36,849 nt of DNA from a virus (Duplodnaviria; Caudoviricetes), in IMG/VR virus record IMGVR_UViG_3300025841_000012, positions 1 to 36,849 of that record; one strand, written 5' to 3'. Positions 1-17,283 of the stretch are shown here, in pieces. Position numbers and translations under genes: made by a program. The notes beneath the pieces are model-generated. The model saw only the letters and a program-made list of their open reading frames with translations. It was not told where the DNA came from and made no database searches. Positions within the stretch are counted from its first letter, which is position 1. Every line of letters starts with the position of its first letter.

Positions 1-2900
1 GCTTTAGTTGCATCGTTTAGCCGCTTCATCGCCAGCGTAATCCTATCTTCAATCACCGCAATCTGTTCTCTGGTAGCGTTATTTTCAATCAATATCTTCT
101 TCTGTTTGCGCAAATTTTTGATAATTGTCTCGGTGAACTTTGCGCGACCAATCAGTTTATATTCAGGGTTATCTGCCATAAATTCATCAACTGGAAGATG
201 ATCTTGCATTCTGCCCTTTAACCCGTTTTCGGCCTCATTGATGCGCATGATGTTCGCGTAATATCTTCCTCCTTGGCTTGATTGATCTTCTGCATTACCA
301 TAAAATCTACCAACCAACGGAATTTTGTACGATGGCAAGTGTTCTCCTGTTACCACCGATTCAGCGCCTTGGAATGCCTTAGAAATTTCACGCCCTACAC
401 CGCCCGTTGCTTGACTTGTCAGGTAATCAATCGAATCAGCAGTTGGGCTGAATACGCCGACCTTGTAATCATCACCGCCCGATACTGTATTGATTGCTTC
501 AGCAAGGAACTTAGACCAAAGTGATGCGGTGTTTTTATTACGGGTAAAGCCAGGTGTTGGATCAAGCGAATTGAAATCAGGCTTATAAATCGTTTTGCCT
601 GTCCAATCCTTGTTTTCTGCCAGTGCCGCAAAAGGATCAAGCGCGGTAGGCGCGAGCGTTTGCATCGAGATACCGGAACTACCAATCGGATTAAAAGCAT
701 CTGCGAATACAGCGAATAACTGTGTCAGTCTGTCTCCTGGACGGTCGAATCCACTCAAAGTAAATTCCGTCAGAATGCGTCCGATATTAGGTATCGCATG
801 GAAGCCAAGCGGCATCGGTAAAGTCAAGTATTTCCCGTCGCCTATCGGCAGGATCAAGCTGCGCTCACGAATAAATTGCGGCGGCTGGTCATCATCGAAT
901 CCGGCAGCGGCCAGCATCAAGGCTTGCATCACGCCTAATGTGATTCCTCCTATGATGATATTCTTACCTGCGCCACTCAGGCGCAAGGTTTTAATGTCGC
1001 CACCTTCCATTTTAAAGAGTGTTTCACCGATACGCGCTGTACCTTGCGCAGCGGCATTAAAGAAGGCATACAGCGAGCCAGCTTGTTGTCCGATTTCACC
1101 TTTACGATTGAAATTGACGGTGATATTTTTGGCAAGGCTTGCGGCTTCGCTCTTGCTCATGCCGTTATCGCGCGCTACCTTATACGCGGCAAGTCGTGTT
1201 GCGCCTTCCGCTGTTTGATTGTAGTCAGATAACCAATTGAACAACCAAGCGGCTTTATTCTGCGCGATTGACATTGGAACTTTAAGCATTCCGCCTGCGG
1301 TGAATATCTTTCCTAATTGACTATCCTGCCATGCGTGAGGGTCAAGAGCGTGCTTAATAGCATTTGCCCTGTCCTCGCTATTGGCGTACAAATCGCGGTA
1401 GCTTGTCATACCGCCCTCATTCTGCAACTCTTCCCATAAAACTGCCCACTTAGACGTAGCGGCATGTCCTTTGCGTTCTGCGCGCATATCGGTATAAATT
1501 CCAATCAGAGCCGAAGGAATGTTTTTCAGCACATCGACGCGCTTATTGGCTATTGGTGTTGAGGAAAGGTTCAGCAGTAAGCCTTGCGTATCACGCACAA
1601 AATTGGTTAAGCCGAATACAGGGTTATATTGCGTGTTGATCGAGGCAAAATAACGGGTAATCTTGGCGGACGCGCTTAGTAATTCGCCTAAATGGATCGC
1701 GTCCAGATTTTTGATTGCCACTGCCATGCGAATAGCCCGGTCATTATGCTTATTGAAGATAATGGCGCGTTCAACGACATTACCTTGGCTGTCAACAACC
1801 TTTGCCACCACCACGTTTTCATGGTTCTTGAACGTCGGGTCAATACGTTCTTCAATCAGCCCAGTACGCTCATTAAGTACCCGTTCTTTTGGAATGTCAC
1901 CGACCGACCAGAATTCTTCGTTTGGATTTTGTTCAGCAAGACCTACCAGCGCAGCCGCTACACGGTTTTTCTCGCCGCGAACGATAGCCTTTTCCCGTTG
2001 CATGGCAACGTTCGCCAGAATATCAATCACCTTAGCAGTCGATCCGGTGCGGTGTTTAACCTCCTTGCCTTTGATTGAGAAGCCCTGACCGATCCCCATG
2101 TAGCCGTCGTGATCCTCACGCATCAGCGGAACATAATATCTAAACATTTCAGCCCATGAATCAACCTGATCTTTCGGCACAAGGCTATAATCAACATACA
2201 GGTCACGGGTTTTTGCGATAATTGCATCAACCTTTTGCGCGGCGGTGTTGAGTTTGTTCTTTTGCGCTATCGGCAAGGCTTTCATATATTCAGCAGCCTG
2301 ACGGTTGCTCATGCCAGACAAGGCAGTATTGTCGCCTACAAATGGTGTGACATAGCCCAGTTCGCGCACTTGATAGACGGCATTTAGATATTCGTTTATG
2401 TCCGTGCTGGATTTCTTCAGTTTAGCCAGTCTGCCTTCAAGGATGCTAACTAATGAATCATCAGCCTCACCGACCAGCACATCAGATTTGGCACGTAATA
2501 GCCTTGCGCGCACATCAAGGTACTTGGTAACATCAGCATTGTTGAACAGACTGTCGCGCTGCGCAGAATACTTTGCGATCAGTGCGTCAAGTTCAACCTT
2601 GGTTGGATTGCGGCTTTGCGCGAGGGCATTGGCTTCCGGCGCATGGCGTGCGTGCAGGTACTCGTCAAGGCTATCAGAACTCAGCCCATCCTTCTGCATC
2701 TGCTCCAGCATTGGGTTGAGTTCCGTCAGTATAAAATCTTGAGTGCGTTTCGATGCCCTGCCGTGAAATAATTCTTCACGCAGATAAGCATTCACGTTCT
2801 CCGTGACTTTTATGCCGGTTGATTTGATAGCTTCGATGACGCGCTTCATGTCAACGTGTTTGTCATGGAGCTTGTAATCAAGATTGTCGAACATTGAAGG
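1..2900 (-). other. C-terminal LPD38-like region of the giant protein (domain, boundaries approximate)
   Basis: Motifs YLHARHAPEAN, YYVPLMRE, TQYNPVFGLTNFVRD, TRLAAYK, ITVNFNRKG, LYAFFNAAAQG, YLTLPMPLGF and ENKDWTGKTI are characteristic of the C-terminal module of phage large polyvalent proteins (recognised from memory). Confidence 0.7.
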
Positions 2901-5900
2901 CTTTATGGAATCCCATGTTGCACGGCTGTGCGGCTGCCCGCCTTCCAATCCGAGATTATTCTGGAGCGGAGGTTGATCGTGTGGCTTGGCTGTGCCAGGG
3001 ATGGATGATTGCGCTGGGGCGGCAATCTCTTCCCTATCATCCAAATACGCTTCAATCTCGCTAAATTTATCTTCCGTAGACTGCGTTGTTCTTAAATCAA
3101 TATCCGCTTGCTCATAATGCAACGGGAGATTATGGTCCGATATTCTGATCTTCGTTCCACTTGGATTGTGGATGATGTATTCTGACTTGCTTTGCGTTGA
3201 ATGTGCAAACGAAAAAACATCGCCAAACCTTTCTTCCAACTTGCCGATAAGAGAGTTTTTATATGCTGAATTTTTTGCTCTAGCAATAGCATTATCGCTG
3301 CGCTCCAGATGCGAAAGCGAACTGGTGATTAAATCGGTCAAATCAGATGATATAGCAAAGAAACTGTTCCTGTTTCCTCCCCATGGTGGCAAATACGTTA
3401 ACTGGTATCTTCCGTCTGGCAGCACTCCAACTGTCATATAATAATTGTCCACCACCATAAAACCATTAAGCATTTCATGCTTATGTTTATTGATTTCACC
3501 AAAAACCGTATCTAATGGAACCGTCTTTTTCGTCCATTTGAAAAACTCTGTTTTTCCTGTCCGTTTGCGGCTTGCCAGCGCCCCTTGTGACACGCCAGCC
3601 GCGTCATATCCTTCGATAATCTTGATTGGGTTTAACGCTCCATTGATCCGCTCTCCGCCATTAAAATATCGAATTTCGACTGGTAGTGTTTCCCAGCCTA
3701 GCCGTGCTGCGGCCATTATTCGGTGATTACCTTCGCTTATCCATGCTTTACCATCCTGGTCTACCTCAATATAAGGCACTTCTGGTTTGCCATTTTCCAA
3801 GGTTGGAAGTGATCCTGTTTCACCCATTCTCCTTAACAACCAATCCAAATCACCTTGACGCACTTTACCCTGCTCCCCGCGTAACCCTGGAAGCGATTGC
3901 AATGCTTTCAAAGGGACGCTTACTGGTGCAGTAAAGCGTCCTGTTACCGCGCCAAATCGCTTGTATGCGCCATACTCATTGCGCCCAGCATCGGTAGTAA
4001 TGGCTCTCTTTTCATTGAGCCAGTAATCACTTAGGATGTCAGATTTTAATGTCGGCTTTACATTGGTGGATGCCAGCGCCACTTGTGACACGGCGGGCGT
4101 GTCATATCCATGCGCTTTATTACCCTCTACCGCATCCTTCATCCGCCGGATCAGCCTGAGCACCCCTCCATCGCTTACCTCTGTAACTGGTCTGCCAGTC
4201 ACCCGGCTAATGAACTGGCGTACCGCGTCCACCACCCGCCCGATCATGCTCAGTAAGTTGCTGCGCATCACGATAGGCACTTTCACGCCGTAGCGCTCAA
4301 GTATGGCATCAACATTGCCGGTGATGGTGGCCGCCGCCAGTTCGGCTATTGCTTCATCGGTGTGCGTCATGGCGTTGAATGTCTCGCCGCGATCCATTGC
4401 AATTGCCTTGGCGAGCTTGGTCACAAAGCCATTCTTGGCCGCATAGCTCAGCGCACCCACTACCGGGCTACCCAACATCCTGATGCCACCGTGCCCTACG
4501 ACCTCATGCACCGCGACCCAGACACTGCGCTCCGGCGATGCGATGTTGTCAGCCACCAGATAGACGGTGTAAGTCTTGGGATCGTAGATACCCTCCGAAT
4601 GCTGGCCTATCGGCTTACCCACACGCAGCGCGCGCAGGTAAAGTTCGTTCGGGATTTCTTTGACCGACTGAACGATGATGACACGCTTGAATCCGTGCCA
4701 GCTTGCGCGCAGTTTGGCAGTGGCTTGTTTAATGGAATCGACGGTTTGCGGCGTTAGGTTTGCCTGCTCGGTTTTACTGAACCGCGTCATTCCGGTGCGG
4801 TCAATATGACTTGCACCAATCTCGCCAAAGTAAAGCGCGCCAGCTTCGCGGTAGGCTATCGGCATGGGAGTGTTGGAATTAACGAAGCCGCCTTTGGAAT
4901 CGGCGCGCTGAACAACCAGCGTTAATCCGTGTTCATTGGCGAATCTTTGGAATCGAGCAGGAACATTGACGCGAGCGGGGCCGGTGACGATGGCTTTGCC
5001 GTTTGCGTTGATAGTGAAGGTAATGCCTCGCTCTGCCGATTCGATACCAGCCGCAGCACGACGTAGTTCAACGAGCGTGGCTGCGTCAATAGGCAGGTTG
5101 CGAGTGGTGTTGGGTTGTACTTCATAGCTGTCACTCTGCGCTTTATTTGCTACGCTTGCAAGCGGCGCATCATCGCTATTCATTTCCTTGAGCGCTGTTC
5201 CATACCCAAGTTCTTCCAATACCTTCTTACGTTCAGCGATTTCGGCAGTAAACGCGGCGCGTTCTTCCACCGGAACCGCGTCGATTTGCGTAGACTTCAT
5301 CAGCCTGCGCTGCACGAGACCATGGTTTTGCTGTGCTGCAGCAAGGGCTGCTATACCATCGAACGGTTTATCTATACGCGCCTCGATGCTGGCGATGTCC
5401 TTCTTCGCCAACTCAAGATCAAGCTGAACCCGCTCTTTACGCTGCGCTAGGCTATCGATGTAGTTGGCAAAGCGCGTCAGCATTCCGCTTGGCGAGATTA
5501 CATCCTTCGCACCGTATGACGCAACCGTTCCGATACTGGACTCAATCTCCACAAGACCTGCCGCCCACATAGCTTTAAGCGTGAACTTCACGCCGCGATA
5601 GTAAATATCCTTGGACTTGGTAAAGCCGGTGCGCACCATCGTTACCGCTTCAGCGATCTTCGTTTCAGCTTTTTCCTTGTCAGTTATGGTTTTCCCGTCA
5701 ATAACTACAGGCACAACCTTTCCTTTTTCTATTGTTACCGGGATTGCTCTTGCCGCAGCCATTTGAGTTTCAATCGCTTGGATGCGAGCAGGAAGCCACT
5801 CGGACACACGATTGCGCTCATGGCTCAATTTGCGCTGCATCGCGTACTTGCCGTCACTGTATGCTTTCTGCAAGGCGGTCAGGCGCTTAACCTCAGTATG

Positions 5901-8900
5901 CATCTTGGTTTCTTCCAGAATTAGCGGATTGCCGGATGCCGCCGCCTTCATGTCAGCGGAATTCGCCGCCTCTCCGGCTACGTCCTCTATCTCGATCTGC
6001 CCACTGTACTTGCGCAACTGCTCGATGCCGGAGGCTTTATGCTCCAGCAACTGCCAGCGGCGCGTGTCGTAGGTCTGCTCGGTTGCATAGCGCCCGATGA
6101 ACACCTCGAAGCCGTCAGGATCGCGCGCGTAGAGCATATTACCTTGGCGAATGATGCGGCCTTCGCGCTGCTCAAGGTCGGATGGCCGCCATGGTGCGTC
6201 AATATGGTGCAGTCCTACCAGACGTTCCTGCACGTTGGTTCCGGCTCCAAGTTTAGGTGTGGAGCCAAATAGGAAGCGCACATCGCCACGGTTCACGCTC
6301 TTGAATAGAGACTGTTTCTTGGCCGGGGTGTCGTAGTCGTGAATGAAGGCGATCTGGTTTTCAGGCACGCCGCGCGCTACTAGCTTTCCCTTGATGTCGT
6401 CATAAACAGAGAACTGGCTGTCACCTGATACACCTTCAATATCTTCCATGCCGACTTCGTTGCTGCCATCTTCAGCAAGTTCCAGATCGTTTTCTGCGCG
6501 GTACTCCGCCATACGTTCGGCGGTGATCGGTTCTTTCGATTCGCGCGCCTCATACCACTTGTCGCGGTTGGCATCCTTACTTAAGAGGTCAGCTAACCAA
6601 TCTTTCGCCTCGCCCTTGTTCGCCATGTCGCCTTTGATACGCAAACCTGTGACGGGATCGTAAATAGAGATTGAAGGCGAGCCGCGATCAATGGTGCGCA
6701 CCAGATAGAATGGGAAGCCCTCAAAGCCTTTTATGGTATGCAGTGTGCCGTTCTTGTGCGTCAACATCCCTTGGTCGTCCAACACGAACAATCTGCGGTC
6801 TTTGTTCCCCAGCGCGCTACGTGCCGACAGCGGAATGGAGGTGTCGCAGAAAACAAGCTGCGTTCCTTTATCCTTGCTCCACTTCTGGTACACGTCCATC
6901 ATCTTGTCAACAGCCTTGTTGATCTTGCTGCCCGCGAAATCTTCGGCGTTCGGGTTAATGATGCGCATATCCAGCCCGGCCTTGCTTGCCAGGCTGGTCA
7001 ACGACAAGGCGTTTATCTTGCCTTTTGTCTCGCGCGTCAGTTGCGCAAGGTTGCTAAACTGCCCAAGCAGGGAATCTGGGTCGAGGTAGAGTACCGGGGT
7101 GAGGGATTTCTCCACCAGCGCCAGCTCCGCATCTTCCTTGGTGTCATATGAGTTGGATGTATGCCCGTCGCTCAATATCCACTTGGCATCATTGCTCTGC
7201 TCGATCTTCGCCTTTGTTGCATCCATAGCGAACAACACCTTGCCGCTCTCGTCGCGCCGCACGGTCGGTGCGCCAAAGAAGTCGCGCTGTGCCGTGGAGC
7301 GTTGCGCCACGATGTTTTCCGGCTTTCCGCTGGCAATCTTCGGCACCGGGAATACTTTGCCCGCTTCCTTGGCCTGATCCTTCAGGTCTTGCAGCGTCAC
7401 GGTATCAGCAAAGGTGTGGTAGTGCGCCATCAGCGACGGCAGGTTCTTGAACTTCGAGAAGCGCTGGCTGATTCTGTATCCCACGCCGCTTGGCGCGACT
7501 TCGTACAGGCTTTCCACGTCGCCGTACATGCGCGCCCATGAATCGAACAGGTGCAACCCGTCGCGCTTCATTTCGTCGTATTTCATGTAGCGCTGCATGG
7601 TGAACATTTCTGACAGCGAATTCGATACTGGCGTTCCAGTGGCCGTAATGAACGGAACTTTCTCGCCGTAGGTCTTGGTCAGCCATCGCACCTTGGCGAA
7701 CAAGTCGAATGCCTTACCCGATCCTTTGGGATTACCAAGCCCAGACACGCGCTGCATCTGCGTCGAAAAAAACAGGTTTTTGAATTCGTGCATTTCGTCC
7801 ACAAACAGGCCATCAATGCCAAGTTCGTCGAATGTCACCACTTTGTCGCGCTCTCCGGCTAGTAAGGCCAGCTTCTCTACCTTCGCTTCCAGATTTGCCC
7901 TGATCTTCTCCATATCGCGCACGATGCCACGGTCACCACGTTCGCTCTTTATCGCCTCGATTGCGTTAGTTATCTCGTCGATCTGCTCTTTGTAGATGTC
8001 CTTTTCTATTGTTGGGTCGAGGCCGATCTTTGTCAGCGAGGAATGGCCGATAATCACCGCGTCATATTCGCCCAAGGCAATCTTGGAGAACATGCGCTGG
8101 CGGTTCGCCTTACTGAAATCTTCTGGATTGGCAGCCAGCACGTTCGCTGCCGGGTACATGCGCGCGAATTCACTACGCCATTGCGTAGTCAGATGGTTGG
8201 GTACCACCAGGATAGGCTTGCGCGCAATGCCCAGGCGCTTGTATTCCATGATGATAGCGGTACCCACAAAGGTTTTACCGGCACCGACCGCGTGATCCAG
8301 CAGCAGGTTGCGGTCTTGAATTCCTCGCCATACCGCAGACTTCTGGTGTTTGCGCAGGACGATGGCCGGGTTGGAGCCGTGCAGCACCAGATGATCACCG
8401 TTATATTTCCGGTTCACTGTGCGGTTGTGCTTCTCGTTGAACAGCTCGGCCAACTTCTCGGCGCGCACGCCGTCGTTCCATACCCAAGATTCCCAAGCCT
8501 GCTTGATCTTGTTGACCTTCTCGCGTGCCGCCTCGGTGGCTTCGGTGTCCGTCACAAACACCTCTTTGCCGTCGCGCACCGTTTTCATCTTCACTTCTGG
8601 AGCCTTGCCGTTCATCATCAACTTCAGCAGATCGAACGATGTCAGGTCTTTGGTGCCGTAGTCGTTACTCATCTTGCCAACATCGCCGCTGTCATTGATG
8701 TGACCAAGCCATTGTGCGGTTGCCGCCAGATAAGTCAGGTCTATCTTGGATGAGCCGGTGATTTCGGTGGCGAATTGCTTGAAGATGTCCGCCGGAATCC
8801 ACCCTGCACCAAGCGAAGCGTAAATCTCGCTTGGTAGTTTGTCGGATGGGATAACTTTTTCCAGAGCTATCACGTTGCGGCTGTAGGCGTGATTCTCGTC

Positions 8901-11759
8901 AGCGGACTTTTTCGCCGCAGCCAGCTTGGTCTTTACGTCGCCAGAAAGGTACTCGTCAGACATGACGGGATCCCCTGTTGTTGGGTCTAGGTAGAGCATA
9001 TCACCCAGCTCTTCGATGATTTCCTTTTGGCTCTTGCCGTAAGCGCGCTCCATGTATTCCAGATCGACTCGGCCTTTTGCGTCCAGCGAGGACAGTAAGG
9101 CATCATTGGCGGAGGTCACATTCATCTGCTCGGCAAACGGAAATAGCACGCGCCGCGTAAGGATGTCAGCTTTCTGGGCGGACGGTGCGCGCTCTTCCAT
9201 GCCATTCCGTAACGCAACCGCCTTCGATACTCCTTTGTCGTAGTCAAACTCGATGGCTTGCAGCAGAGCGTACTCCGTATCATCCATGAAGATGTTTCTA
9301 TTCACTTGGCTATTGACATAGCCGTACTTCTTGAAGAAGTCGTCGTAAGCCTTGCTTAATACCTTGCGGTGACTTTCGATCATCTTCACGCCGTTTTTCT
9401 CGTCGCGCTCCATGCGCATCTGAGTACGCAGTAGGTTTCGCAGCGAGATCATGCCCTTCATGCGCGCCATAGCTGTGTTGTTTTTCGGCTCCCATGCGGT
9501 TGAGGTTTGTGATCCGGCGATGTCCTGGCCGCGCTGTTTCACCTCTCCCTTATCGGTGATGAAGTAGGAACCTTGTTTAACTCCAGCGGGAATGGTGTTG
9601 TCAGTGCTGTCCAGCTCGTTGATTGTGCGCTCGACAGGCTTGTAGATGTTCTCCGGAATGGACGCAACGAACCCGGCAAGCTGTTTGGTAAGATCGCCGG
9701 TCGGCTCTACGGTGTATTCGTTAGCGCGGTACATTGATCCGGCGGTCGTTTCTTTTCCGAGGATGTTTTGTTTGTTGCGCTGGAAGTACACGTTAACGCT
9801 GGCAGTTGTGGATTCGCCACCCTTCGGCGCTGGCACAACAATATCCGACGCATTTATCCACGCAGGGCTCTTTTCGGGAGTTGCTGTTTTCTGTAAAAAC
9901 AGGATGTCGGTGACCACTTCAGTTCCAGCGTTGCCCTTGAAGGCAGTATTTGGCAGGCGGACAGCGGCAATAAGATTGGCGCGCTTGGCAATCCATTCGC
10001 GCGTCTTTGGGTTGATCGCATCCATGAAGTTGTGCGACACGATCACCGGAACAATGCCGCCGTCGCGCACCTTGTCTATCATACGTGCGATGAAGTAGTT
10101 ATGAATGCTGAAGCCGGAATACTCGCTGCGCTCCCTGTCAATAATCGGCTCGCTTCCGAATGGCGGATTGCCCATGGCGATGTCGAAGTAACCGACCGGC
10201 ACTTGATAATGCTGGAAGCCTGTAGCTATAGCAATGTTCGCTTTTGGATAGATCGCCTTCAGTAGTTTACTGGTCAATAAGTCAAGCTCTACACCGTGTA
10301 ATATGGATGCATTGCGGATGTCAGTCGGCATCATGCCGAAGAAATTGCCCGACCCAGCGGAAGGCTCAAGGAATCGCCCACCAATAAAGCCAAGGCGACG
10401 GACGGCGGAGAACATTGAATCAACTACCGGCTTACTGGTGTAGTGTGCGTTCAGTACAGAGGCGCGCGCCGATTCGTATTCCTCGTCGTTTAGCAGCTCG
10501 CGCAGCTCGGCGTATTGTGCCTTCCATTGCTTACTGTTTTTGTCGAACACTGACTTGAGCGCACCAAAACCAACATAGCGCGCCAGCGTTTTGCGTTCAT
10601 CGGGGGTGGCTGGACGCGATTCTGTGTCCAGAAGTTTGAGTATTTTGATGGCCGCGACGTTATCGCGGAATTTCTTGACCAGCCCACCGCTACCGATTTC
10701 ATTGGCATCGGTGATAACGTGATCTGCTAATCCAACGTCGGTGGATACGCTGGTTGATCGAACAACTCCATCAGTTCGTGCCGCGCCAGATGGGTGTAAT
10801 CCTTCTGTGTTTCCAGTATATTGCGTTCCTGATCCACTTGGTACTCGAACGCCACCTGATACTGCTTCGCCGCTATCAGCGCCTTCACCCTGCCCGGCCA
10901 GCCCAGCATCCAGCGATTCGCCAGCTCGATACCGACCTGACTTTGCGCCTGTATCACTTTGCGCAGATTCTCCGGGTACGCTTTCGGTAAGAGTAGGTCT
11001 TGCATTTTCTGTTCCTCCAATGAGTACATCCTGCGCTTTTGCGCCTTGTTTGTCAATTCCGAGATGTTCAACCGACTTGTACTCATCCTTGCGGTCTGCG
11101 GCAAAGTGCGCACCTTGATCGAGAGACTTATTTGTTTCCGGCTTGATCTTTTCCTGTATGGTTGCGATTGCGTCAATATCAGCCGATCCAGTCATCCCGT
11201 CAGTATTCAACCCAGGGTAGTGCCGCACGCTCTCATACAGGCTGCGCAGGTATGGTTTAATGGCATCACCAAGGTCTTCGATCATAGCCTTACTGTAGGC
11301 GGCAAACGAGCGCGCCCCGGCCTCTATATGAGCGCCAGCCAACACCATGCCGTCTTGCAATAATTCAGGGTCAATGCCGCTATTCAGTGATCCGAGTTTC
11401 TTTTTCAGGCGAGCGCGTGCTGCGTCAACTGCGGACTGGGTGAATATCTTGTTGTTGGCAAATTGGGTGTCGGCTTGGTTGTCGAAGCGTGATTGATTTG
11501 CGGTGGTCGGCTTTGCGCTTCCAGATTCTGACGTTTTGGCTGGCGCAGGAAGACCCATTGCTTCGTGAACAAGCTCCAGAATACCGTTCCTCTCTGCAAT
11601 CGCTTCGTCAAGCATGGTTTTAACGGCAAACTTTTCAGCCTGCTCCATGCTTATTTTGCCGATGTTTTGGTTGGCAATTGCGCGGATTTCTTTCATTTCA
11701 GCTTCACTGAATAGCGGCTTGCCTCTGTTTAGCTTGTAAAAACAATTCGATAATCTCAT
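1..11759 (-). CDS. Giant polyvalent virion/ejection protein (>=3,919 aa, 3' end beyond the window): DarB-like MTase + SNF2-type helicase + MPTase-like metallopeptidase + ParB-like + LPD38-like C-terminus
   Basis: ATG at 11759 overlaps the TGA of the upstream gene (ATGA). Hand translation starts MRLSNCFYKLNRGKPLFSEAEMKEI, and motifs at 10158, 8271, 7776, 4491, 3720, 3132 and the window edge (...EDRITLAMKRLNDATK) all fall in the same frame. The ORF track lists no stop-terminated ORF from this start, consistent with no in-window stop. Confidence 0.93.
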   Translation of the reverse strand, partial: MRLSNCFYKLNRGKPLFSEAEMKEIRAIANQNIGKISMEQAEKFAVKTMLDEAIAERNGILELVHEAMGLPAPAKTSESGSAKPTTANQSRFDNQADTQFANNKIFTQSAVDAARARLKKKLGSLNSGIDPELLQDGMVLAGAHIEAGARSFAAYSKAMIEDLGDAIKPYLRSLYESVRHYPGLNTDGMTGSADIDAIATIQEKIKPETNKSLDQGAHFAADRKDEYKSVEHLGIDKQGAKAQDVLIGGTENARPTLTESVPGESAQSDTGAKSGRYRAGESLDAGLAGQGEGADSGEAVSGGVRVPSGSGTQYTGNTEGLHPSGAARTDGVVRSTSVSTDVGLADHVITDANEIGSGGLVKKFRDNVAAIKILKLLDTESRPATPDERKTLARYVGFGALKSVFDKNSKQWKAQYAELRELLNDEEYESARASVLNAHYTSKPVVDSMFSAVRRLGFIGGRFLEPSAGSGNFFGMMPTDIRNASILHGVELDLLTSKLLKAIYPKANIAIATGFQHYQVPVGYFDIAMGNPPFGSEPIIDRERSEYSGFSIHNYFIARMIDKVRDGGIVPVIVSHNFMDAINPKTREWIAKRANLIAAVRLPNTAFKGNAGTEVVTDILFLQKTATPEKSPAWINASDIVVPAPKGGESTTASVNVYFQRNKQNILGKETTAGSMYRANEYTVEPTGDLTKQLAGFVASIPENIYKPVERTINELDSTDNTIPAGVKQGSYFITDKGEVKQRGQDIAGSQTSTAWEPKNNTAMARMKGMISLRNLLRTQMRMERDEKNGVKMIESHRKVLSKAYDDFFKKYGYVNSQVNRNIFMDDTEYALLQAIEFDYDKGVSKAVALRNGMEERAPSAQKADILTRRVLFPFAEQMNVTSANDALLSSLDAKGRVDLEYMERAYGKSQKEIIEELGDMLYLDPTTGDPVMSDEYLSGDVKTKLAAAKKSADENHAYSRNVIALEKVIPSDKLPSEIYASLGAGWIPADIFKQFATEITGSSKIDLTYLAATAQWLGHINDSGDVGKMSNDYGTKDLTSFDLLKLMMNGKAPEVKMKTVRDGKEVFVTDTEATEAAREKVNKIKQAWESWVWNDGVRAEKLAELFNEKHNRTVNRKYNGDHLVLHGSNPAIVLRKHQKSAVWRGIQDRNLLLDHAVGAGKTFVGTAIIMEYKRLGIARKPILVVPNHLTTQWRSEFARMYPAANVLAANPEDFSKANRQRMFSKIALGEYDAVIIGHSSLTKIGLDPTIEKDIYKEQIDEITNAIEAIKSERGDRGIVRDMEKIRANLEAKVEKLALLAGERDKVVTFDELGIDGLFVDEMHEFKNLFFSTQMQRVSGLGNPKGSGKAFDLFAKVRWLTKTYGEKVPFITATGTPVSNSLSEMFTMQRYMKYDEMKRDGLHLFDSWARMYGDVESLYEVAPSGVGYRISQRFSKFKNLPSLMAHYHTFADTVTLQDLKDQAKEAGKVFPVPKIASGKPENIVAQRSTAQRDFFGAPTVRRDESGKVLFAMDATKAKIEQSNDAKWILSDGHTSNSYDTKEDAELALVEKSLTPVLYLDPDSLLGQFSNLAQLTRETKGKINALSLTSLASKAGLDMRIINPNAEDFAGSKINKAVDKMMDVYQKWSKDKGTQLVFCDTSIPLSARSALGNKDRRLFVLDDQGMLTHKNGTLHTIKGFEGFPFYLVRTIDRGSPSISIYDPVTGLRIKGDMANKGEAKDWLADLLSKDANRDKWYEARESKEPITAERMAEYRAENDLELAEDGSNEVGMEDIEGVSGDSQFSVYDDIKGKLVARGVPENQIAFIHDYDTPAKKQSLFKSVNRGDVRFLFGSTPKLGAGTNVQERLVGLHHIDAPWRPSDLEQREGRIIRQGNMLYARDPDGFEVFIGRYATEQTYDTRRWQLLEHKASGIEQLRKYSGQIEIEDVAGEAANSADMKAAASGNPLILEETKMHTEVKRLTALQKAYSDGKYAMQRKLSHERNRVSEWLPARIQAIETQMAAARAIPVTIEKGKVVPVVIDGKTITDKEKAETKIAEAVTMVRTGFTKSKDIYYRGVKFTLKAMWAAGLVEIESSIGTVASYGAKDVISPSGMLTRFANYIDSLAQRKERVQLDLELAKKDIASIEARIDKPFDGIAALAAAQQNHGLVQRRLMKSTQIDAVPVEERAAFTAEIAERKKVLEELGYGTALKEMNSDDAPLASVANKAQSDSYEVQPNTTRNLPIDAATLVELRRAAAGIESAERGITFTINANGKAIVTGPARVNVPARFQRFANEHGLTLVVQRADSKGGFVNSNTPMPIAYREAGALYFGEIGASHIDRTGMTRFSKTEQANLTPQTVDSIKQATAKLRASWHGFKRVIIVQSVKEIPNELYLRALRVGKPIGQHSEGIYDPKTYTVYLVADNIASPERSVWVAVHEVVGHGGIRMLGSPVVGALSYAAKNGFVTKLAKAIAMDRGETFNAMTHTDEAIAELAAATITGNVDAILERYGVKVPIVMRSNLLSMIGRVVDAVRQFISRVTGRPVTEVSDGGVLRLIRRMKDAVEGNKAHGYDTPAVSQVALASTNVKPTLKSDILSDYWLNEKRAITTDAGRNEYGAYKRFGAVTGRFTAPVSVPLKALQSLPGLRGEQGKVRQGDLDWLLRRMGETGSLPTLENGKPEVPYIEVDQDGKAWISEGNHRIMAAARLGWETLPVEIRYFNGGERINGALNPIKIIEGYDAAGVSQGALASRKRTGKTEFFKWTKKTVPLDTVFGEINKHKHEMLNGFMVVDNYYMTVGVLPDGRYQLTYLPPWGGNRNSFFAISSDLTDLITSSLSHLERSDNAIARAKNSAYKNSLIGKLEERFGDVFSFAHSTQSKSEYIIHNPSGTKIRISDHNLPLHYEQADIDLRTTQSTEDKFSEIEAYLDDREEIAAPAQSSIPGTAKPHDQPPLQNNLGLEGGQPHSRATWDSIKPSMFDNLDYKLHDKHVDMKRVIEAIKSTGIKVTENVNAYLREELFHGRASKRTQDFILTELNPMLEQMQKDGLSSDSLDEYLHARHAPEANALAQSRNPTKVELDALIAKYSAQRDSLFNNADVTKYLDVRARLLRAKSDVLVGEADDSLVSILEGRLAKLKKSSTDINEYLNAVYQVRELGYVTPFVGDNTALSGMSNRQAAEYMKALPIAQKNKLNTAAQKVDAIIAKTRDLYVDYSLVPKDQVDSWAEMFRYYVPLMREDHDGYMGIGQGFSIKGKEVKHRTGSTAKVIDILANVAMQREKAIVRGEKNRVAAALVGLAEQNPNEEFWSVGDIPKERVLNERTGLIEERIDPTFKNHENVVVAKVVDSQGNVVERAIIFNKHNDRAIRMAVAIKNLDAIHLGELLSASAKITRYFASINTQYNPVFGLTNFVRDTQGLLLNLSSTPIANKRVDVLKNIPSALIGIYTDMRAERKGHAATSKWAVLWEELQNEGGMTSYRDLYANSEDRANAIKHALDPHAWQDSQLGKIFTAGGMLKVPMSIAQNKAAWLFNWLSDYNQTAEGATRLAAYKVARDNGMSKSEAASLAKNITVNFNRKGEIGQQAGSLYAFFNAAAQGTARIGETLFKMEGGDIKTLRLSGAGKNIIIGGITLGVMQALMLAAAGFDDDQPPQFIRERSLILPIGDGKYLTLPMPLGFHAIPNIGRILTEFTLSGFDRPGDRLTQLFAVFADAFNPIGSSGISMQTLAPTALDPFAALAENKDWTGKTIYKPDFNSLDPTPGFTRNKNTASLWSKFLAEAINTVSGGDDYKVGVFSPTADSIDYLTSQATGGVGREISKAFQGAESVVTGEHLPSYKIPLVGRFYGNAEDQSSQGGRYYANIMRINEAENGLKGRMQDHLPVDEFMADNPEYKLIGRAKFTETIIKNLRKQKKILIENNATREQIAVIEDRITLAMKRLNDATK
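3573..3611. repeat. 39-bp direct repeat, copy 1 (encodes GYDAAGVSQGALA)
   Basis: tgccagcgccccttgtgacacgccagccgcgtcatatcc; 34/39 identical to 4071-4109. Confidence 0.9.
3612..4070 (-). other. ParB/Srx-like domain within the giant protein
   Basis: PYIEVDQDGKAWISEGNHRIMAAARLGWETLPVEI (EGNHR at 3720-3734) matches the ParB-N GxxR signature. Confidence 0.7.
4071..4109. repeat. 39-bp direct repeat, copy 2 (encodes GYDTPAVSQVALA)
   Basis: tgccagcgccacttgtgacacggcgggcgtgtcatatcc; offset from copy 1 by 498 bp (166 codons, in frame). Confidence 0.9.
4130..4760 (-). other. Zincin-like metallopeptidase (MPTase-type) domain within the giant protein
   Basis: SEGIYDPKTYTVYLVADNI...VAVHEVVGHGGIR (HEVVGH at 4491-4508), followed by EAIAELAA (candidate third Zn ligand). 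Confidence 0.8.
4922..5125 (-). CDS. Possible nested +1-frame, leaderless 67-aa ORF (MKYNPTPLATCLL...)
   Basis: ATG at 5125 lies 7 nt downstream of a candidate -10 box. There is no SD and the protein has no recognisable motif. Confidence 0.25.
   Translation of the reverse strand: MKYNPTPLATCLLTQPRSLNYVVLRLVSNRQSEALPSLSTQTAKPSSPAPLASMFLLDSKDSPMNTD
5133..5164 (-). promoter_or_regulatory. Candidate internal promoter TTGCAA-N17-CAGAGT, with a perfect 12-bp palindrome CGCTTGCAAGCG (5153-5164) over the -35
   Basis: Same GCTTG-N17-GCGYAG architecture as the intergenic sites at 22373-22404 and 34140-34171. Confidence 0.4.
5850..8450 (-). other. SNF2/SF2 helicase domain (DarB-like) within the giant protein
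   Basis: Walker A DHAVGAGKT (8271-8297), Walker B VDEMHEFKN (7776-7802), motif III ATGTPVSNS, KGTQLVFCD, GAGTNVQ, and motif VI PWRPSDLEQREGRIIRQGN. Confidence 0.92.
9890..10720 (-). other. N6-adenine DNA methyltransferase domain (DarB-like) within the giant protein
   Basis: LARYVGFG, NAHYTS, SAM-binding motif LEPSAGSGNF (10341-10370), catalytic MGNPPF (10158-10175), AVRLPNTAFKGNAGTEVVTDILFLQK. Confidence 0.92.
10727..11005 (-). CDS. 92-aa protein fully nested in the +1 frame of the giant gene (MQDLLLPKAYPENLRKVIQAQSQVGIELANRWMLGWPGRVKALIAAKQY...HLARHELMELFDQPAYPPTLD)
   Basis: GGAGG RBS at 11014-11018, 8 nt before ATG 11005. The sequence is globular-looking, whereas the host frame here is a G/S/A/T-rich linker. 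The ANRWMLGWP...HLARHE pattern resembles a family of stand-alone proteobacterial hypothetical proteins (from memory, unverified). The ORF track extends it to 11176. Confidence 0.75.
   Translation of the reverse strand: MQDLLLPKAYPENLRKVIQAQSQVGIELANRWMLGWPGRVKALIAAKQYQVAFEYQVDQERNILETQKDYTHLARHELMELFDQPAYPPTLD
11028..11056 (-). promoter_or_regulatory. Candidate internal sigma70-type promoter for the nested gene: TTGACA-N17-CAGGAT
   Basis: Perfect -35 TTGACA (11056-11051), 17-nt spacer ending in GCG, -10 CAGGAT (11033-11028), then the RBS and ATG within about 25 nt. Confidence 0.55.
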
Positions 11760-12019
11760 AACAATTCCCGTATCACGATATTCATCACTAGGTGCAGCAC
11801 GATTTCATCCTCTGCGTGCTGCGCAGAAATCATTGCCAGTTTTTGCTGATCTACTTTTACGCTTTTTTCGATTGAGCGCGGTTGCTGATATTTCTGAGTC
11901 CGTTCGCTGTAGCTGCCAACACTCCCTGCCGGATGCTCAATTTGCTGTGTAGCTACACCGCCTAGCAGCGCCCCGGCAAATAATGCGCCTGCGAATAGTT
12001 TTCCGCGCATCAGGCTCAT
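11756..12019 (-). CDS. Small hypothetical protein closing the fibre-like module (87 aa)
   Basis: ATGA overlaps at both ends. N-terminal LFAGALFAGALLG repeat and acidic-hydrophobic C-terminus EDEIVLHLVMNIV. Confidence 0.8.
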   Translation of the reverse strand: MSLMRGKLFAGALFAGALLGGVATQQIEHPAGSVGSYSERTQKYQQPRSIEKSVKVDQQKLAMISAQHAEDEIVLHLVMNIVIRELL

Positions 12020-12633
12020 GGTGTCACCGTTGGGGTGCCGTTGCCGTTAGCGTCCGGCGTGAGCGTAATCACTGGCGTTACATCATCCTGCGCGTAGTAC
12101 GTTTCGGTTGCAGTTCCAATCCCTGCCCGTTTTCCTGCGAGAGCAGCTAGAGTTACTTTCATAATCTGCTCGGCGGTCAGCCCATCTAGCACCTTCGCCC
12201 AAGTCTCATTCGCTATGTCAATTTTGTCCTGAGCAGTCACACCAGACCCTACCGCCACAACCTGCAATCCAGCGGAATTTGCCGGGATAACTGATACGCC
12301 GTTAGGGTTCAGCACGTCTAACAGGTTGTTGTTCGAGCCTCCGACTAATTTAACCTGATAGCTCCCGTTCTCAAATGTTAGCGTAAATGGCGCAAGGAAA
12401 GAGATAGCACGGGCGTAAACCGTTCCTGAGATGGTTACTTGCGTTGCGTGCGTGAATGCAGGCGGAAGGGACATTCCAGCTTCACTATCCAGATAGTCCG
12501 CTAGTTCTCGCATTAAGGCATACTCATTATAACTTCTTATTTCGTACCCGGTAGACGCATTCGTCCCAACAAAGGTCGTGTCCGCCTTCGGGATTGAGAT
12601 AACGTGAGTCGCGTGGTTGATGGTGATGCTCAT
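12016..12633 (-). CDS. Putative virion fibre-associated protein (205 aa)
   Basis: Tight operon spacing. C-terminal LTAEQIMKVTLAALAGK...DANGNG motif is of a type seen in phage fibre-like proteins. Confidence 0.8.
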   Translation of the reverse strand: MSITINHATHVISIPKADTTFVGTNASTGYEIRSYNEYALMRELADYLDSEAGMSLPPAFTHATQVTISGTVYARAISFLAPFTLTFENGSYQVKLVGGSNNNLLDVLNPNGVSVIPANSAGLQVVAVGSGVTAQDKIDIANETWAKVLDGLTAEQIMKVTLAALAGKRAGIGTATETYYAQDDVTPVITLTPDANGNGTPTVTP

Positions 12634-12635
12634 GA

Positions 12636-15245
12636 TTATTCGTCCGCAATCAACAACACGGTGGCAGAAAAGCCGGAGCTGGTCGTCGTACCCGAGATCG
12701 ACCCCGGCTTGTAAAGTGTGCCGCTGGCTACCGTTGCCCGGCGCACCGTGCCGGTGATGGCATGGCTGGCGTACTGCGTCGTGCCGGTCAGGATGCCAGA
12801 TGCGTTGGTTACTCCCTCCAACACCATGTAGCCACCCACGTCCGTTGTGATCCGCACGCGGGCGTTCTGCATGGCAGCGAGCGTGCTGGAATCCTTGACG
12901 GTGACGGCTACTGTTACCGTGTCCAGCGGGTACAGATTCGCCGTCTGCGCCGCGAGCGTTGATGTAGTCGAGATGCAGATATACACCAGCACATTATTAG
13001 TTGCAGCCACCGCGCATACGATACGATATTTCAGCTTAAAACCAACGGCAGGGTCTATGCTGGCGCTAAAGCTGTTCAGGTTCGCTCCGGTCAAGTTGAC
13101 CCATGTTCCATTCCATCCGCTGCCGGTATCTATCTGGAAATAGATGTCGTGGTTCCCCCACCGCGCGCCGGAAGAATAGGTGACATTCGTGCCGGTTACA
13201 ACAGGAGATGTAATAGGCAACCCGGTACAGCCTTTGACAAAGTAATCCTGCTCGATTATCGCCTCATCGTTTAGTGTCGCCATTGAGATACTACCGGCGC
13301 TGGTGAACTTCGGCGTTCCAGCCACGACGGTGTAATACCCTGTAGTTTCTACGGTGGGTTCGTTTAAGCTCAAAACAACCATACCGTCAGTATCGCTGGC
13401 GAACGCATCTCTAAAATGCGTCCCATACACAGAAGCCTGCCCTGTTGTAGTATTTGTTCCGCCGCAATTCTTTGCGCTGGAGTTTAGGCTGGCAATAACC
13501 ATTGTGTCGGTCATGTCGCCATAAACATGCTCGTAAATCATACCTTTGTCAGAGTTGGTGGTTGACAACGCGAACGTTCTGGTGGGCATCATATATATCC
13601 GCTGAAGCCTGACGTTCAGATTGCCGCCGGAACTGGCAAAGATATAGTTTGGGTTGTTAGCGCTGCCGCCGTTGAGGAAAGCAGTTCTGCTGCCGCACTC
13701 GCGTAATTTGATATTGGTTGATTGGCCTACGTAAAAAATGCCCCCATACGGATGCACATTGGCAATAGCGCCTTTTAGCCCGAACGTGACATTGCGAATA
13801 ACAATATCGTCTGATGACGACAATATATACGCAACATAAAGGGCCGTCGTCGTGTTTGTCTCCCCAACAAACCTGTCGCAACTGTCGATTCCATCCACGA
13901 CGCAATGAAAGCTGGTTATGAATTTTATATTTCCATTGAACATATAACAGTCATTGAATGTTATGCTGCTTGACTGTGTGATCTGGAATGCCATGCCGGA
14001 GCCGCGCACATAGGTAATGACACCTGACTTGACGCGGGTGAACGTCTGACCGGAAGAGAATAACGTATAGGAAACGTGGGTTGCCGGTGAGTAATGATAG
14101 CACACCCAATCAGTGATATTCCCCCCTGCAAAACACGACGTTAATTGCAGAGTTACTGCATTTATTGACTGGCTGATTCCGTTACCTCCGTTGCTGATAT
14201 TCACTGGTGATGCACACTCCGTAATACTGACGTAGTCGAAGGTACATGAGTTTGCAATATCCACAGAGTACGGTTGAAAGAAATAAAAGTACCAGTCAGA
14301 CATGAAGTTCTGAATGTCAATAGCGCCCGCTGATGTGGTGACAAAGTCTGGCCGTGTTGTTGCAGTGGCGCTCGGAATGACGTTGGTTGTTTTATCCGCC
14401 GCAGTGCATTGCCGTCCGATTACGTTTGGAATCCGAACCTTCAGATTAGCCGCAGGAACTTCGCCAACAGCGGTTGTTCCGTTATGGCCGAATCTGACAT
14501 TCCCGTTTGTTTCCATACAGACGAACTTGCTGCGGTCATCGGTTCCGAGATTGGTCGTAGTCATTCCGGCGGCGAATAACGACGGCCAGAATTCATAGAC
14601 TCCAGACCCTACGGCAGTCTCTACGTACACTCCCGGGACATAGGCCGTCGCGCTTCCGTTGGTCGGAACTTGCATCAACTGATTTGCCACACCGGAGGTA
14701 GTGCCAATCTCGAACCAATCGCCGCGAACAGTAAAGTCTCCGAGCCGTGGTACGGTAATTGATATTGCTTGCGTATGAACAACCTCAATCCAGCCAACTA
14801 CATCAACTCCGTTGGTTGTTGCACCTATTCCAGTCAGTACATCATTATCCACAAACGCAACGTCTGCTTCGCGTAGCTTCAAAAATCCTGTTGCGGGCAT
14901 TGCCGCGCCAACCGCCGTAGGTGCGGATGTGAGGCTTGCCCACACGCCCAACAGGTATCCGTTCGCGCCGCTTGTGCCGCCGGTTACTATAGTGCCCACA
15001 GCGGGGACAATGCCAATTCCCGCGTCATAAGCAACCCATCGAACATTGCGTCCGTCCAGAATATAGCTTCCGCCAAAAGTCGAGCTGATAGTGTGCGCGC
15101 CAAGGCTTCCTGTCATCCCGGCGGGGCTGTTGGCGTGCCATCTCGTATCGGTGCGAACAGTGAGCGACCCGCCGTTATTGGTCATCGCCTCCCCTGCCGT
15201 GCGGGGCGCGTCGTCCAGGAAAACGGCGCTAGTGATTATTGCCAC
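12636..15245 (-). CDS. Putative receptor-binding/tailspike-like protein (869 aa) with a beta-helix-like core and Ig-like C-terminus
   Basis: GTG start after AAGGGA. Central repeats of the type SSSITFNDC / SSDDIVIRNV / STNIKLREC. C-terminal VTVAVTVKDSSTLAAMQNARVRI...EGVTNASG. Confidence 0.8.
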   Translation of the reverse strand: MAIITSAVFLDDAPRTAGEAMTNNGGSLTVRTDTRWHANSPAGMTGSLGAHTISSTFGGSYILDGRNVRWVAYDAGIGIVPAVGTIVTGGTSGANGYLLGVWASLTSAPTAVGAAMPATGFLKLREADVAFVDNDVLTGIGATTNGVDVVGWIEVVHTQAISITVPRLGDFTVRGDWFEIGTTSGVANQLMQVPTNGSATAYVPGVYVETAVGSGVYEFWPSLFAAGMTTTNLGTDDRSKFVCMETNGNVRFGHNGTTAVGEVPAANLKVRIPNVIGRQCTAADKTTNVIPSATATTRPDFVTTSAGAIDIQNFMSDWYFYFFQPYSVDIANSCTFDYVSITECASPVNISNGGNGISQSINAVTLQLTSCFAGGNITDWVCYHYSPATHVSYTLFSSGQTFTRVKSGVITYVRGSGMAFQITQSSSITFNDCYMFNGNIKFITSFHCVVDGIDSCDRFVGETNTTTALYVAYILSSSDDIVIRNVTFGLKGAIANVHPYGGIFYVGQSTNIKLRECGSRTAFLNGGSANNPNYIFASSGGNLNVRLQRIYMMPTRTFALSTTNSDKGMIYEHVYGDMTDTMVIASLNSSAKNCGGTNTTTGQASVYGTHFRDAFASDTDGMVVLSLNEPTVETTGYYTVVAGTPKFTSAGSISMATLNDEAIIEQDYFVKGCTGLPITSPVVTGTNVTYSSGARWGNHDIYFQIDTGSGWNGTWVNLTGANLNSFSASIDPAVGFKLKYRIVCAVAATNNVLVYICISTTSTLAAQTANLYPLDTVTVAVTVKDSSTLAAMQNARVRITTDVGGYMVLEGVTNASGILTGTTQYASHAITGTVRRATVASGTLYKPGSISGTTTSSGFSATVLLIADE

Positions 15246-15248
15246 GGC

Positions 15249-15407
15249 TTATCCCTTCAGGTGTATCTCGATGCCGCCAGAGTCCGACTGCACCTCGACG
15301 AGTTGCAAATCGTACTCGAGGACATCGTCTGCAATTCTGATTGGCGTCGAGTCAGGGTACGATTTGGATAGCGCCAGTAGTTCAGCGATGAGTTGTTGCA
15401 AATTCAT
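15249..15407 (-). CDS. Small hypothetical protein (52 aa, MNLQQLIAELLALSKSYPDSTPIRIADD...EIHLKG), below the ORF-track cut-off
   Basis: Hand-translated ATG 15407 to TAA 15249. It fills the gap, ends 3 nt before the next start, and has a typical small phage protein pattern (M..L..L...PD..I.I). Confidence 0.75.
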   Translation of the reverse strand: MNLQQLIAELLALSKSYPDSTPIRIADDVLEYDLQLVEVQSDSGGIEIHLKG

Positions 15408-15445
15408 AATAATTTATCCGATGAGTTCCTGTAGTAGTGTCAAGA

Positions 15446-17185
15446 TTATGCGTCCGACACACTTGATATGGTTGCCGATCCGCCTGTGGCTGACAATGAG
15501 CTAGTTGTATTAGCGGGTTTAATGCTGTCCAAAAAACTAGGCCCAGTACCACCAAAACGCGCCGACACATACAACGTCTGCGCCCCGCCAGATTGAATCG
15601 TGTTAAACGATATAGTAGGGCCAGTAGCGGCCGCATCAATGTAGCTAATGTATATGTTGGCACCGGCGGCGGCGTTATTAGTTGAAAAGTCGTGAGCAGT
15701 GATTGTGAATGTTTTAGTCCCTGAATTCACCGCCGAGTACGGATGCCGCGTGAACCTTCCGTCAGCGCGCTTAATGCGGATTGTCCCACTTGCTGGGGTG
15801 TTTGCTGGAATTGCTTCGACAACAACAACTGAAGTGACTGCAACACCATTCAGCAGCGCGGCGTTAGATAGTTGTGACTCAAGCAGACCACCCGCTCCAT
15901 TCTCCGGCCCGACCATAACCCGATAGCCCGTAGCCAAGCCGCCGACAGTGAAAGTGACATTGTTTGGCGGCTGACGAGTCGTACCATCAAGAGCAGTGAT
16001 TTTGTCATTCACTGCAAGGTCAACGTACTCAAGCGAGAAGCCGTACGAACCAACCAGAGACGAGCCAGTGGATTGACCGCACATCGGGGTCGAGATTGCC
16101 CGGCTTGTAACGATGCCTGCCGTGGCCGTCACAACTCCCTGTGTCAATGTATTGGCAGAGGGGATAACTCCGGTCAGCAGTTGGATGTACAACGTACCCG
16201 CTGTGCCGCCGTCGTTGTCTGCAAGAATCTGTCCAGTGCCAGCGGTAACGCCCGTGCCCCAAGACAATGGCGTAGCACCGCCCTGCGTGAAGCTGCCACC
16301 TGCTTGCGCCGTGTATGCTACCGAATGAGTGATACCACGGAACAATTCACCTGTCAGCCCGTACAGTGTTGTCGCCATGCCGTTGCGGGTCTTCCACTTC
16401 ATGTACTCGTAGAATGTGTTGATGCTGTTCGCACCACGATCCCACTTGGAATAGTATTGCTCATCGACTGCATTGTTATCCACATCAATCAGATTGAATC
16501 CAGACGTGACGTTGGTGATGTCGGCCAATGCCGCAATCGTTCCAATAACTGTTTGGTTGTTCAAGTCATCGGAGTAGGTCAACGGGACGGAGTTCTTGCC
16601 ACGATCCGTTGACGGGATACGGAACTCGGAGAATGTCTTACCCCATTCGCGCGTGGTGAATATCAAAGACCCGTTGTCAATGCTCACGCCTGCGGATTTG
16701 ACCTTGACCATGAACTGCATGGCAATACCGTTCGCTTCATCAGGATTGATACCATTCTCTACCTCACCGAACGGGGTGTTATTCCAGAACTTATTTGTCA
16801 GAACGGCGTTATTTTGAATGACATTAACCACTACACCTCGGTTGGCAATGATGGAAATGCCATCATAAATAGCTTCAGTTCCGCCCGATCCCTGGATAAT
16901 CGACCCACCATAAATAAATTCGCTGGCAGGAGTGACATAAGCGTCATCGAGGCTAAACCCATTCAGTAACTGAATAATAGTTGCGAACTTTTTATCTGAC
17001 GGGTTCGGCACGGTGATGTCGATGAAGTCGTCACCGGACATAGTTCCATCATCCGCGCGATCTTGTAGAAAGCGGTGTAATTCCAGCACCGTGATGTAAT
17101 TAGCTGCGGCGGTGCCGTGAGCGCCCCCGATATAACGGAGTGTTCTATCGCTGCGAACTTCCCATTTTGTGCTATCTAATGCCAT
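15446..17185 (-). CDS. Putative virion structural/fibre-module protein (579 aa)
   Basis: AGGAG RBS. G/T/A/S-rich beta-strand composition; N-terminal TVLELHRFLQDRADD motif. Confidence 0.85.
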   Translation of the reverse strand: MALDSTKWEVRSDRTLRYIGGAHGTAAANYITVLELHRFLQDRADDGTMSGDDFIDITVPNPSDKKFATIIQLLNGFSLDDAYVTPASEFIYGGSIIQGSGGTEAIYDGISIIANRGVVVNVIQNNAVLTNKFWNNTPFGEVENGINPDEANGIAMQFMVKVKSAGVSIDNGSLIFTTREWGKTFSEFRIPSTDRGKNSVPLTYSDDLNNQTVIGTIAALADITNVTSGFNLIDVDNNAVDEQYYSKWDRGANSINTFYEYMKWKTRNGMATTLYGLTGELFRGITHSVAYTAQAGGSFTQGGATPLSWGTGVTAGTGQILADNDGGTAGTLYIQLLTGVIPSANTLTQGVVTATAGIVTSRAISTPMCGQSTGSSLVGSYGFSLEYVDLAVNDKITALDGTTRQPPNNVTFTVGGLATGYRVMVGPENGAGGLLESQLSNAALLNGVAVTSVVVVEAIPANTPASGTIRIKRADGRFTRHPYSAVNSGTKTFTITAHDFSTNNAAAGANIYISYIDAAATGPTISFNTIQSGGAQTLYVSARFGGTGPSFLDSIKPANTTSSLSATGGSATISSVSDA

Positions 17186-17283
17186 AATTGTCTCCTGTAA
17201 ATGTTCAAGCTCTAACAGAATGGATCAATTTACCTTCTTTGATGTCCGTATGTGCATTTGCCGCACTCGACATTGATGAATGA

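Follow-up and report, generated by a model that had tools for sequence, protein, structure and literature searches.

A conserved gene predicted inside the N-terminal linker of DarB-like methylase-translocase genes of phages, plasmids and integrative elements

Does the linker of a giant phage enzyme gene also encode a second protein in another reading frame? The question is raised by a 36,849-nucleotide stretch of DNA (IMG/VR record IMGVR_UViG_3300025841_000012, positions 1 to 36,849; the whole stretch is called the window here), part of a tailed phage genome with PHROG matches to terminase, portal and major capsid. Following the portal, capsid and other structural genes, a giant DarB-like polyvalent gene (3..11759, minus strand; at least 3,919 amino acids, running past the window edge) holds on the same strand a 92-codon open reading frame (ORF; 10727..11005, minus strand) in its +1 frame, for a predicted five-helix protein of an unnamed family marked by ANRWMLGWP. 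Judged by sequence comparison, this ORF is a genuine same-strand nested gene and a member of a real, conserved gene family.

The nested ORF has putative expression signals of its own. The initial annotation had proposed promoter hexamers, a GGAGG, an ATG and a 92-residue +1 ORF within the giant gene, and all lie on the minus strand where it put them. The start codon (11005-11003) follows by 8 nucleotides a Shine-Dalgarno (SD) sequence GGAGG (11014..11018, minus strand), with a pairing energy of -9.3 kcal/mol against a control median of -2.4; the stop codon TAG is at 10729-10727. Further upstream is a predicted internal sigma-70 promoter, comprising a -35-like TTGACA (11051..11056, minus strand), identical in the related loci L079-L084, and 17 nucleotides past it a -10-like CAGGAT (11028..11033, minus strand) that matches the consensus at three of six positions and reads CAGGAT in L081 and CAGAGT in L082-L084; L081-L084 retain both the -35 and the spacing. 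SD and promoter scores each fall in the top 2% among control positions within the giant gene, and a sigma-70-like score built from consensus frequencies gives q 0.02 for the locus. A plain consensus promoter scan did not list the internal promoter, because its -10 matches at only three of six positions. Of 187 stop-free +1 runs within the giant gene, the one at the nested region is the longest, at 154 codons; a 149-residue version starting at an upstream in-frame TTG was rejected, as homologues begin at the SD-led ATG. Contigs from two further DNA runs span 9990-12129 without gaps, and the overlap is therefore not an assembly error. Two metatranscriptome runs yielded seven scattered pieces of 151-229 nucleotides over 20 kb, one of them inside the nested gene (10851-11001); these are no evidence for an internal transcript, because the region itself served to find the runs, which could contain DNA.

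The giant frame, as the initial annotation described, stays open across the nested gene as a linker of polar, glycine- and proline-rich residues (giant residues 252-345; 10725..11006, minus strand), which is of low complexity and stop-free among relatives. Residues of the set GSATPRDEQN make up 87% of this linker in nested relatives versus 62% in the methylase region. The TAG lies three bases before the LPD36 region (10455..10724, minus strand; from residue 346 at nucleotide 10724, end approximate) with its GFGA motif, a motif defined in PMC5512222. The ORF had been said to end directly before the methyltransferase, which is right for LPD36 but not for the catalytic N6-adenine methylase core with its NPPF motif, which lies further on (9954..10223, minus strand; Pfam Eco57I at residues 513-602, E 9e-8).

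Selection acts on both frames, and more strongly on the small one. Nested copies, compared in 1,128 pairs, are on average 45% identical in the small frame versus 29% in the host frame, and the small frame is the more conserved in 1,127 of the pairs. Differences between the window and L081 amount to 9, 5 and 21% at small-codon positions 1, 2 and 3, and the methylase downstream of the nested gene has a normal host-frame substitution pattern. The host frame is also free of stops: the 49 nested copies contain none, versus 198 expected under synonymous recoding at local GC content and 62 expected when each gene's own codons are shuffled, while ordinary genes carry 0.64-0.73 of the GC-null expectation. 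Start signals are conserved as well, with a median SD pairing of -7.3 kcal/mol over 49 de-duplicated loci, versus -2.4 for other out-of-frame ATGs, and with a promoter-like site in the top tenth at 24 of the 49. Because the loci are related, p-values overstate their independence. The suggestion that this is a separately initiated +1-frame gene under purifying selection is thus borne out by the per-frame comparison, by the conserved SD and, at many loci, by a promoter-like site.

The family to which the small protein belongs has no name. A word-index search returned the query and 18 relatives (19 of 19 candidates; 46-88% identity), all unnamed or labelled hypothetical, and a profile search of 1.84 billion representatives gave 110 matches at E <= 0.001, of which a few tail rows are spurious. 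No family in Pfam, PHROG, NCBIfam or PADLOC matches the small protein, and the ESM Atlas matched it only to unnamed clusters. Its AlphaFold2 model has five helices (pLDDT 91.5); a fold search with this model found nothing at E <= 0.001 in PDB or BFVD (best VIA Z 4.3), which does not demonstrate a new fold. Its conserved residues include N30, R31, W32, Q56, E60 and E77. A DNA mimic of the Ocr/ArdA kind was considered and rejected, the net charge being only about -3.

We assembled 155 sequences, the window and 154 loci drawn from collections of viruses, genomes, metagenomes, phages and plasmids, 153 of them with a profile match. In 86 of the 153 the small gene lies inside a -1 frame that stays open and continues into a DarB-like methylase; in one (L070) the host frame is open through the small gene and changes afterwards; four lie at contig ends and were not assigned a context; and 62 have no methylase within 2.5 kb (17 of these on short contigs). 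Thus 86 of the 87 loci with a methylase within 2.5 kb have the small gene in the same open frame, and none of these 87, all with a downstream methylase, has a host-frame stop inside the small gene. Nesting also holds for three loci from a diverged sub-clade. The 62 loci also support the statement that the ANRWMLGWP pattern occurs in stand-alone proteins. The 141 complete copies were reduced to 82 by removal of near-duplicates (49 nested, 33 free). The gap from the end of the small ORF to LPD36 varies widely, and in many loci is within a few codons. Nine loci (L022, L023, L025, L026, L054, L098, L099, L136, L140) carry a diverged second copy in tandem, about 300-370 nucleotides upstream, which likewise lies within the open host frame and is led by an SD of its own. 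In L070, L210 and L002 an intact small gene is followed by a host gene broken by a frame change or early stop.

The association also holds in the reverse direction. We picked 48 viral loci by their LPD36-methylase alone and inspected the position 150 nucleotides before LPD36: all 48 have a stop-free +1 run there, of 89-196 codons, versus 94 of 420 control positions, and the +2 frame shows no excess (2 of 48). Most contain an SD-led ORF of 80-140 residues. The family of the window's small protein accounts for six of the 48, those with the closest methylases, and the position directly preceding LPD36 is kept across very diverged subfamilies. Among 30 other nested loci, taken from 42 after near-copies and unclear starts were dropped, 20 have a promoter-like site in the top tenth. 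Gene callers had been expected to miss such genes. They do so in GenBank phage records: PEp14, Bcep22 and VvAW1 have an unannotated nested ORF at this place, and phage 8P carries an unannotated nested small gene (our literature search found no paper on Pseudomonas phage 8P). The expectation fails for plasmids, whose small genes RefSeq does call, and the window's own small protein is present in a public protein collection. In plasmid records it is the host start that is set downstream of the small gene: in L030, L031, L209 and L211 the RefSeq methylase-helicase begins after the small gene, even though the open host frame extends further upstream, and in L030, L031 and L211 this start removes an N-terminus with a clamp-like motif.

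How did the two genes come to overlap? The initial annotation supposed that an independent unit was swallowed when a DarB module fused to an ejection protein. This is not supported, as nesting is already found in stand-alone methylase-helicase genes of plasmids and integrative and conjugative elements (ICEs): in 15 de-duplicated genes of this type the host start lies 40-709 nucleotides upstream of the small ATG, and the overlap therefore predates the phage fusion. The neighbours of these genes encode KfrB, LPD7, ParA and a type IV secretion system coupling protein. The first overlap may have arisen by a much older read-through, or else by insertion or overprinting. Within their first 16 residues all 15 host proteins carry a loose, and 10 a strict, form of Q..[LMIF]F, against 4 of 1,861 background windows; QLDLF is a clamp-binding consensus (10.1101/2025.01.04.631326). 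In phage host proteins the upstream part consists of hundreds to more than 1,700 residues of presumed virion domains, and upstream in the window's own giant protein a QLDLF-like motif is absent. Two plasmid methylase-helicases, L218 (Ti-type) and L222 (Sphingopyxis), lack a nested gene, yet DLF-type motifs are present in their short N-termini; the tether to the clamp may therefore predate nesting.

Free copies are interspersed with nested ones in the family tree (unrooted, 94 columns), with 18 changes between the two states, at least six of them forced by strong branches, and a single free/nested split is rejected (approximately unbiased test, p 1.3e-6). They contain 40 host-frame stops versus 144 expected, a ratio of 0.28 versus 0.73 for neighbouring genes, and two of them (L058, L151) retain a motif-bearing host N-terminus although the enzyme is gone. 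Because they are scattered over the tree, deficient in host-frame stops and in two cases still preceded by a host N-terminus, free copies seem to be derived from nested ones, and repeated loss of the host gene is the simplest reading of these sequences. They stand after relaxase-LPD7 or TraA-like genes and before genes for an Rv2179c-like exonuclease, a HAD protein and a phosphoesterase; in the relaxase-bearing elements of L034, L040, L041, L036 and L043 the recurring downstream set is an Rv2179c-like exonuclease, a Swiss-Army-Knife HAD and a metallophosphoesterase. In a Nitrosospira/Nitrosovibrio clade (L049, L051-L053, L055-L057, L059, L061, L068) the free copy occupies varied chromosomal sites behind a conserved upstream TGTTAAAA box, which resembles that of the nested phage loci L093 and L110. 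Pairs of Nitrosospira-type free copies are 77-88% identical with changes at third positions, and are thus still under selection; a methylase match is absent from eight of ten genomes with such copies, as judged with one query and with some genomes incomplete.

Is the small protein a form of TnpV? The window family is probably a remote homologue or branch of TnpV rather than a member. At the gathering cut-off of PF14198 none of 29 and none of 65 family members pass; among the 27 other nested ORFs scanned, two pass and three match weakly. Plasmid proteins of the pGRT1 type match the family profile at E 1e-10 to 3e-8, and 14 of the profile's next 20 ranks among 2,859 ORFs are nested ORFs. Profile-profile alignment (hhalign) to the TnpV-positive side gave 33%, and 88% (E 3e-6) with a set chosen partly by resemblance; models of a TnpV-positive protein and of the family, compared by their helix pattern, have the same helix-proline-helix-glycine-long-helix spacing. 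Searches further out returned little: the TnpV-type model matched nothing at E <= 0.001 in BFVD, a viral-contig scan with a pGRT1-type protein gave one weak locus, a homologue search with a TnpV-positive ORF returned only itself, and in an iterated profile search PEp14-type and TnpV-positive ORFs did not fall below E 0.001 (best 0.004).

What might the small protein do? We favour, at a probability of about 0.45, a cognate inhibitor of the DarB-like methylase-translocase, one that the resident cell would produce and that would stay there when the enzyme is delivered. It would hold the enzyme inactive inside the producing cell, with the internal promoter providing it independently of the giant mRNA; the enzyme would travel with the DNA without it, and be active only in the new cell. 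The host frame would have to stay open to tether an upstream part to the enzyme, a clamp-binding motif in plasmids and ICEs and virion or delivery domains in phages, and nesting would leave the two genes hardly separable. After enzyme loss the free copies would remain as orphans, kept since they would act on the incoming enzymes of other elements. We favour inhibition because a single family serves capsid and conjugative delivery alike, has a predicted promoter of its own, and leaves orphans that survive without a matched methylase. Several observations weigh against it. No clear promoter-like site is present at 25 of the 49 family loci, and the 62 loci with no nearby methylase fit a partner-independent function equally well. 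Small-protein and host distances are correlated (Spearman 0.66, 39 pairs), but physical nesting by itself would produce such co-divergence. The nested gene is missing from P1 darB and from five of six plasmid homologues drawn from points along the ranking, Campylobacter pTet being the sole one of these seven that has it (158 residues, E 0.0025 to the family profile); the enzyme family is therefore not always dependent on it.

It is unlikely, though a serious competitor, that the small protein has a job of its own in element transfer or counter-defence. It would then be a TnpV-like accessory of relaxase regions, and nesting would serve just co-inheritance and timing. The relaxase-side and exonuclease-side neighbours of free copies speak for this, as do the diverged tandem copies in several phages and the occurrence of TnpV in mobilizable elements that carry a mob gene, where an Xis-like role was postulated (PMC3158075). 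That role is weakened by the finding that TnpX suffices without a directionality factor (PMC5704250), and a free-standing job accounts poorly for a pre-LPD36 position conserved over very diverged subfamilies, or for the lack of any PADLOC match to the small protein. Quite unlikely, in our view, is a chaperone function, in which the small protein would assist folding or delivery and load the giant protein into the capsid or a type IV secretion system. P1 Ulx is such a helper of DarB with a chaperone role, and P1, which lacks the nested gene, has ulx directly downstream of darB; our product, too, is small, helical and mildly acidic (median net charge -3). Its nested gene moreover always stands beside that of a protein delivered with DNA, a DarB-like protein having been detected in virions of JC1 (PMC9144972). 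Against a chaperone, however, the same family occurs in capsid and conjugative settings, as one would expect of a partner of the shared enzyme more than of a chaperone specific to capsids; free copies last in genomes without a methylase match; and a chaperone co-translated with its client needs no separate promoter.

Two further explanations were weighed. The signals might serve a shorter methylase-helicase, reached by re-initiation or frameshifting from the small ORF into the host frame, and the stop within a few codons of LPD36 in many loci would suit this. We consider it very improbable, since the window has no host-frame ATG from the small stop to about residue 453, the host frame is open through the entire small gene and begins further upstream, at a start that bears a clamp motif, the distance to LPD36 differs greatly between loci, and free copies are conserved as whole proteins. 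That the +1 ORF is an unexpressed shadow of constraint on the host protein is barely credible: the sparse metatranscriptome pieces indeed yield no direct evidence of expression, but the near-uniform excess of small-frame conservation, changes concentrated at small-frame third positions, a conserved ATG and SD, a confidently predicted fold and free homologues all run counter to it. Extending the inhibitor to its widest form, a large DarB-like clade of phages, ICEs and plasmids would carry an off-switch in its N-terminal linker under a separate promoter; the TnpV family would be that switch, free TnpV-like genes orphan inhibitors that disarm incoming anti-restriction enzymes, and plasmid enzymes would travel on the sliding clamp of the host by means of a motif joined to them across the hidden gene. 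Taken whole, this picture is doubtful.

Downstream of the methylase core of the giant protein are a SWI2/SNF2-type translocase (6141..8363, minus strand; ResIII/SNF2 at residues 1133-1328, Helicase_C at 1802-1873) and, near the C-terminus, an LPD38 domain (312..890, minus strand; E 1e-38). The order of LPD36 with its GxG[GAS] motif, NPP(Y/F) methylase and SWI2/SNF2 ATPase is that of DarB-like proteins. The giant gene is apparently split in the window (11756-20165, compared with L081:2860-3729): residues 752-815 of an 863-residue gene (17574-20165) and giant residues 96-248 are contiguous in one L081 ORF, at 85% and 78% identity, and a 5.8-kb block of five genes (17583-11756) separates the two genes here. 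An HNH endonuclease-like gene (35882-36550, minus strand; PHROG 1891) lies upstream of that for the terminase large subunit.

We suggest that the nested gene matters for annotation and for biology. In the cultured phages 8P, PEp14, Bcep22 and VvAW1 it adds a gene that the annotation lacks, and in plasmids it reveals that annotated host proteins are missing their N-terminus, including the clamp motif. Through it an orphan family, and probably the uncharacterised TnpV family as well, is linked to the DarB dyad, which ranks among the most common counter-restriction modules of mobile DNA, and the question of how such an enzyme is kept silent before delivery can be put to a direct test. The locus further offers a clear natural example of extended dual coding in which the two frames are unequally constrained, one encoding a folded protein and the other a tether, and of nested genes that have repeatedly broken free to stand alone.

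Embedded genes are already known as a kind; nesting in DarB-like genes, conserved and widespread, was not found described. A full-text literature search, mostly judged by the starts of abstracts and covering few subscription papers, returned no description of a gene nested in DarB-like genes. The small gene P1 ulx is linked to darB, but lies downstream, does not overlap and encodes 146 residues; no match in a PHROG scan connects Ulx to the small protein. TnpV (PF14198), of Tn4451-type mobilizable elements, apparently shares the helix core and has free copies beside relaxases; the window family differs in an extra N-terminal helix, its NRWxxGWP motif and its C-terminus, and TnpV has been described as a free gene. 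The host gene is of the LPD36-methylase-SWI2/SNF2 type exemplified by P1 DarB, a virion-packaged protein that shields DNA against type I restriction (Iyer et al., 2017; PMC5512222), with which the window protein shares LPD36 (GFGA), the NPPF methylase, SNF2 and LPD38; like the window's host type, this dyad is present in both phages and conjugative elements. The words "overlap" and "TnpV" do not occur in the main text of that paper, whose supplement may list the small protein. P1 darB starts at LPD36 and has no nested gene; the nested gene and the N-terminal clamp motif are additions here. The embedded Rz/Rz1 spanin genes likewise place a whole coding sequence inside a same-strand gene (PMC9144972); they concern other proteins and another pathway, whereas the gene described here occupies the disordered linker of a 2,000-5,000-residue enzyme and escapes from it as a free gene.

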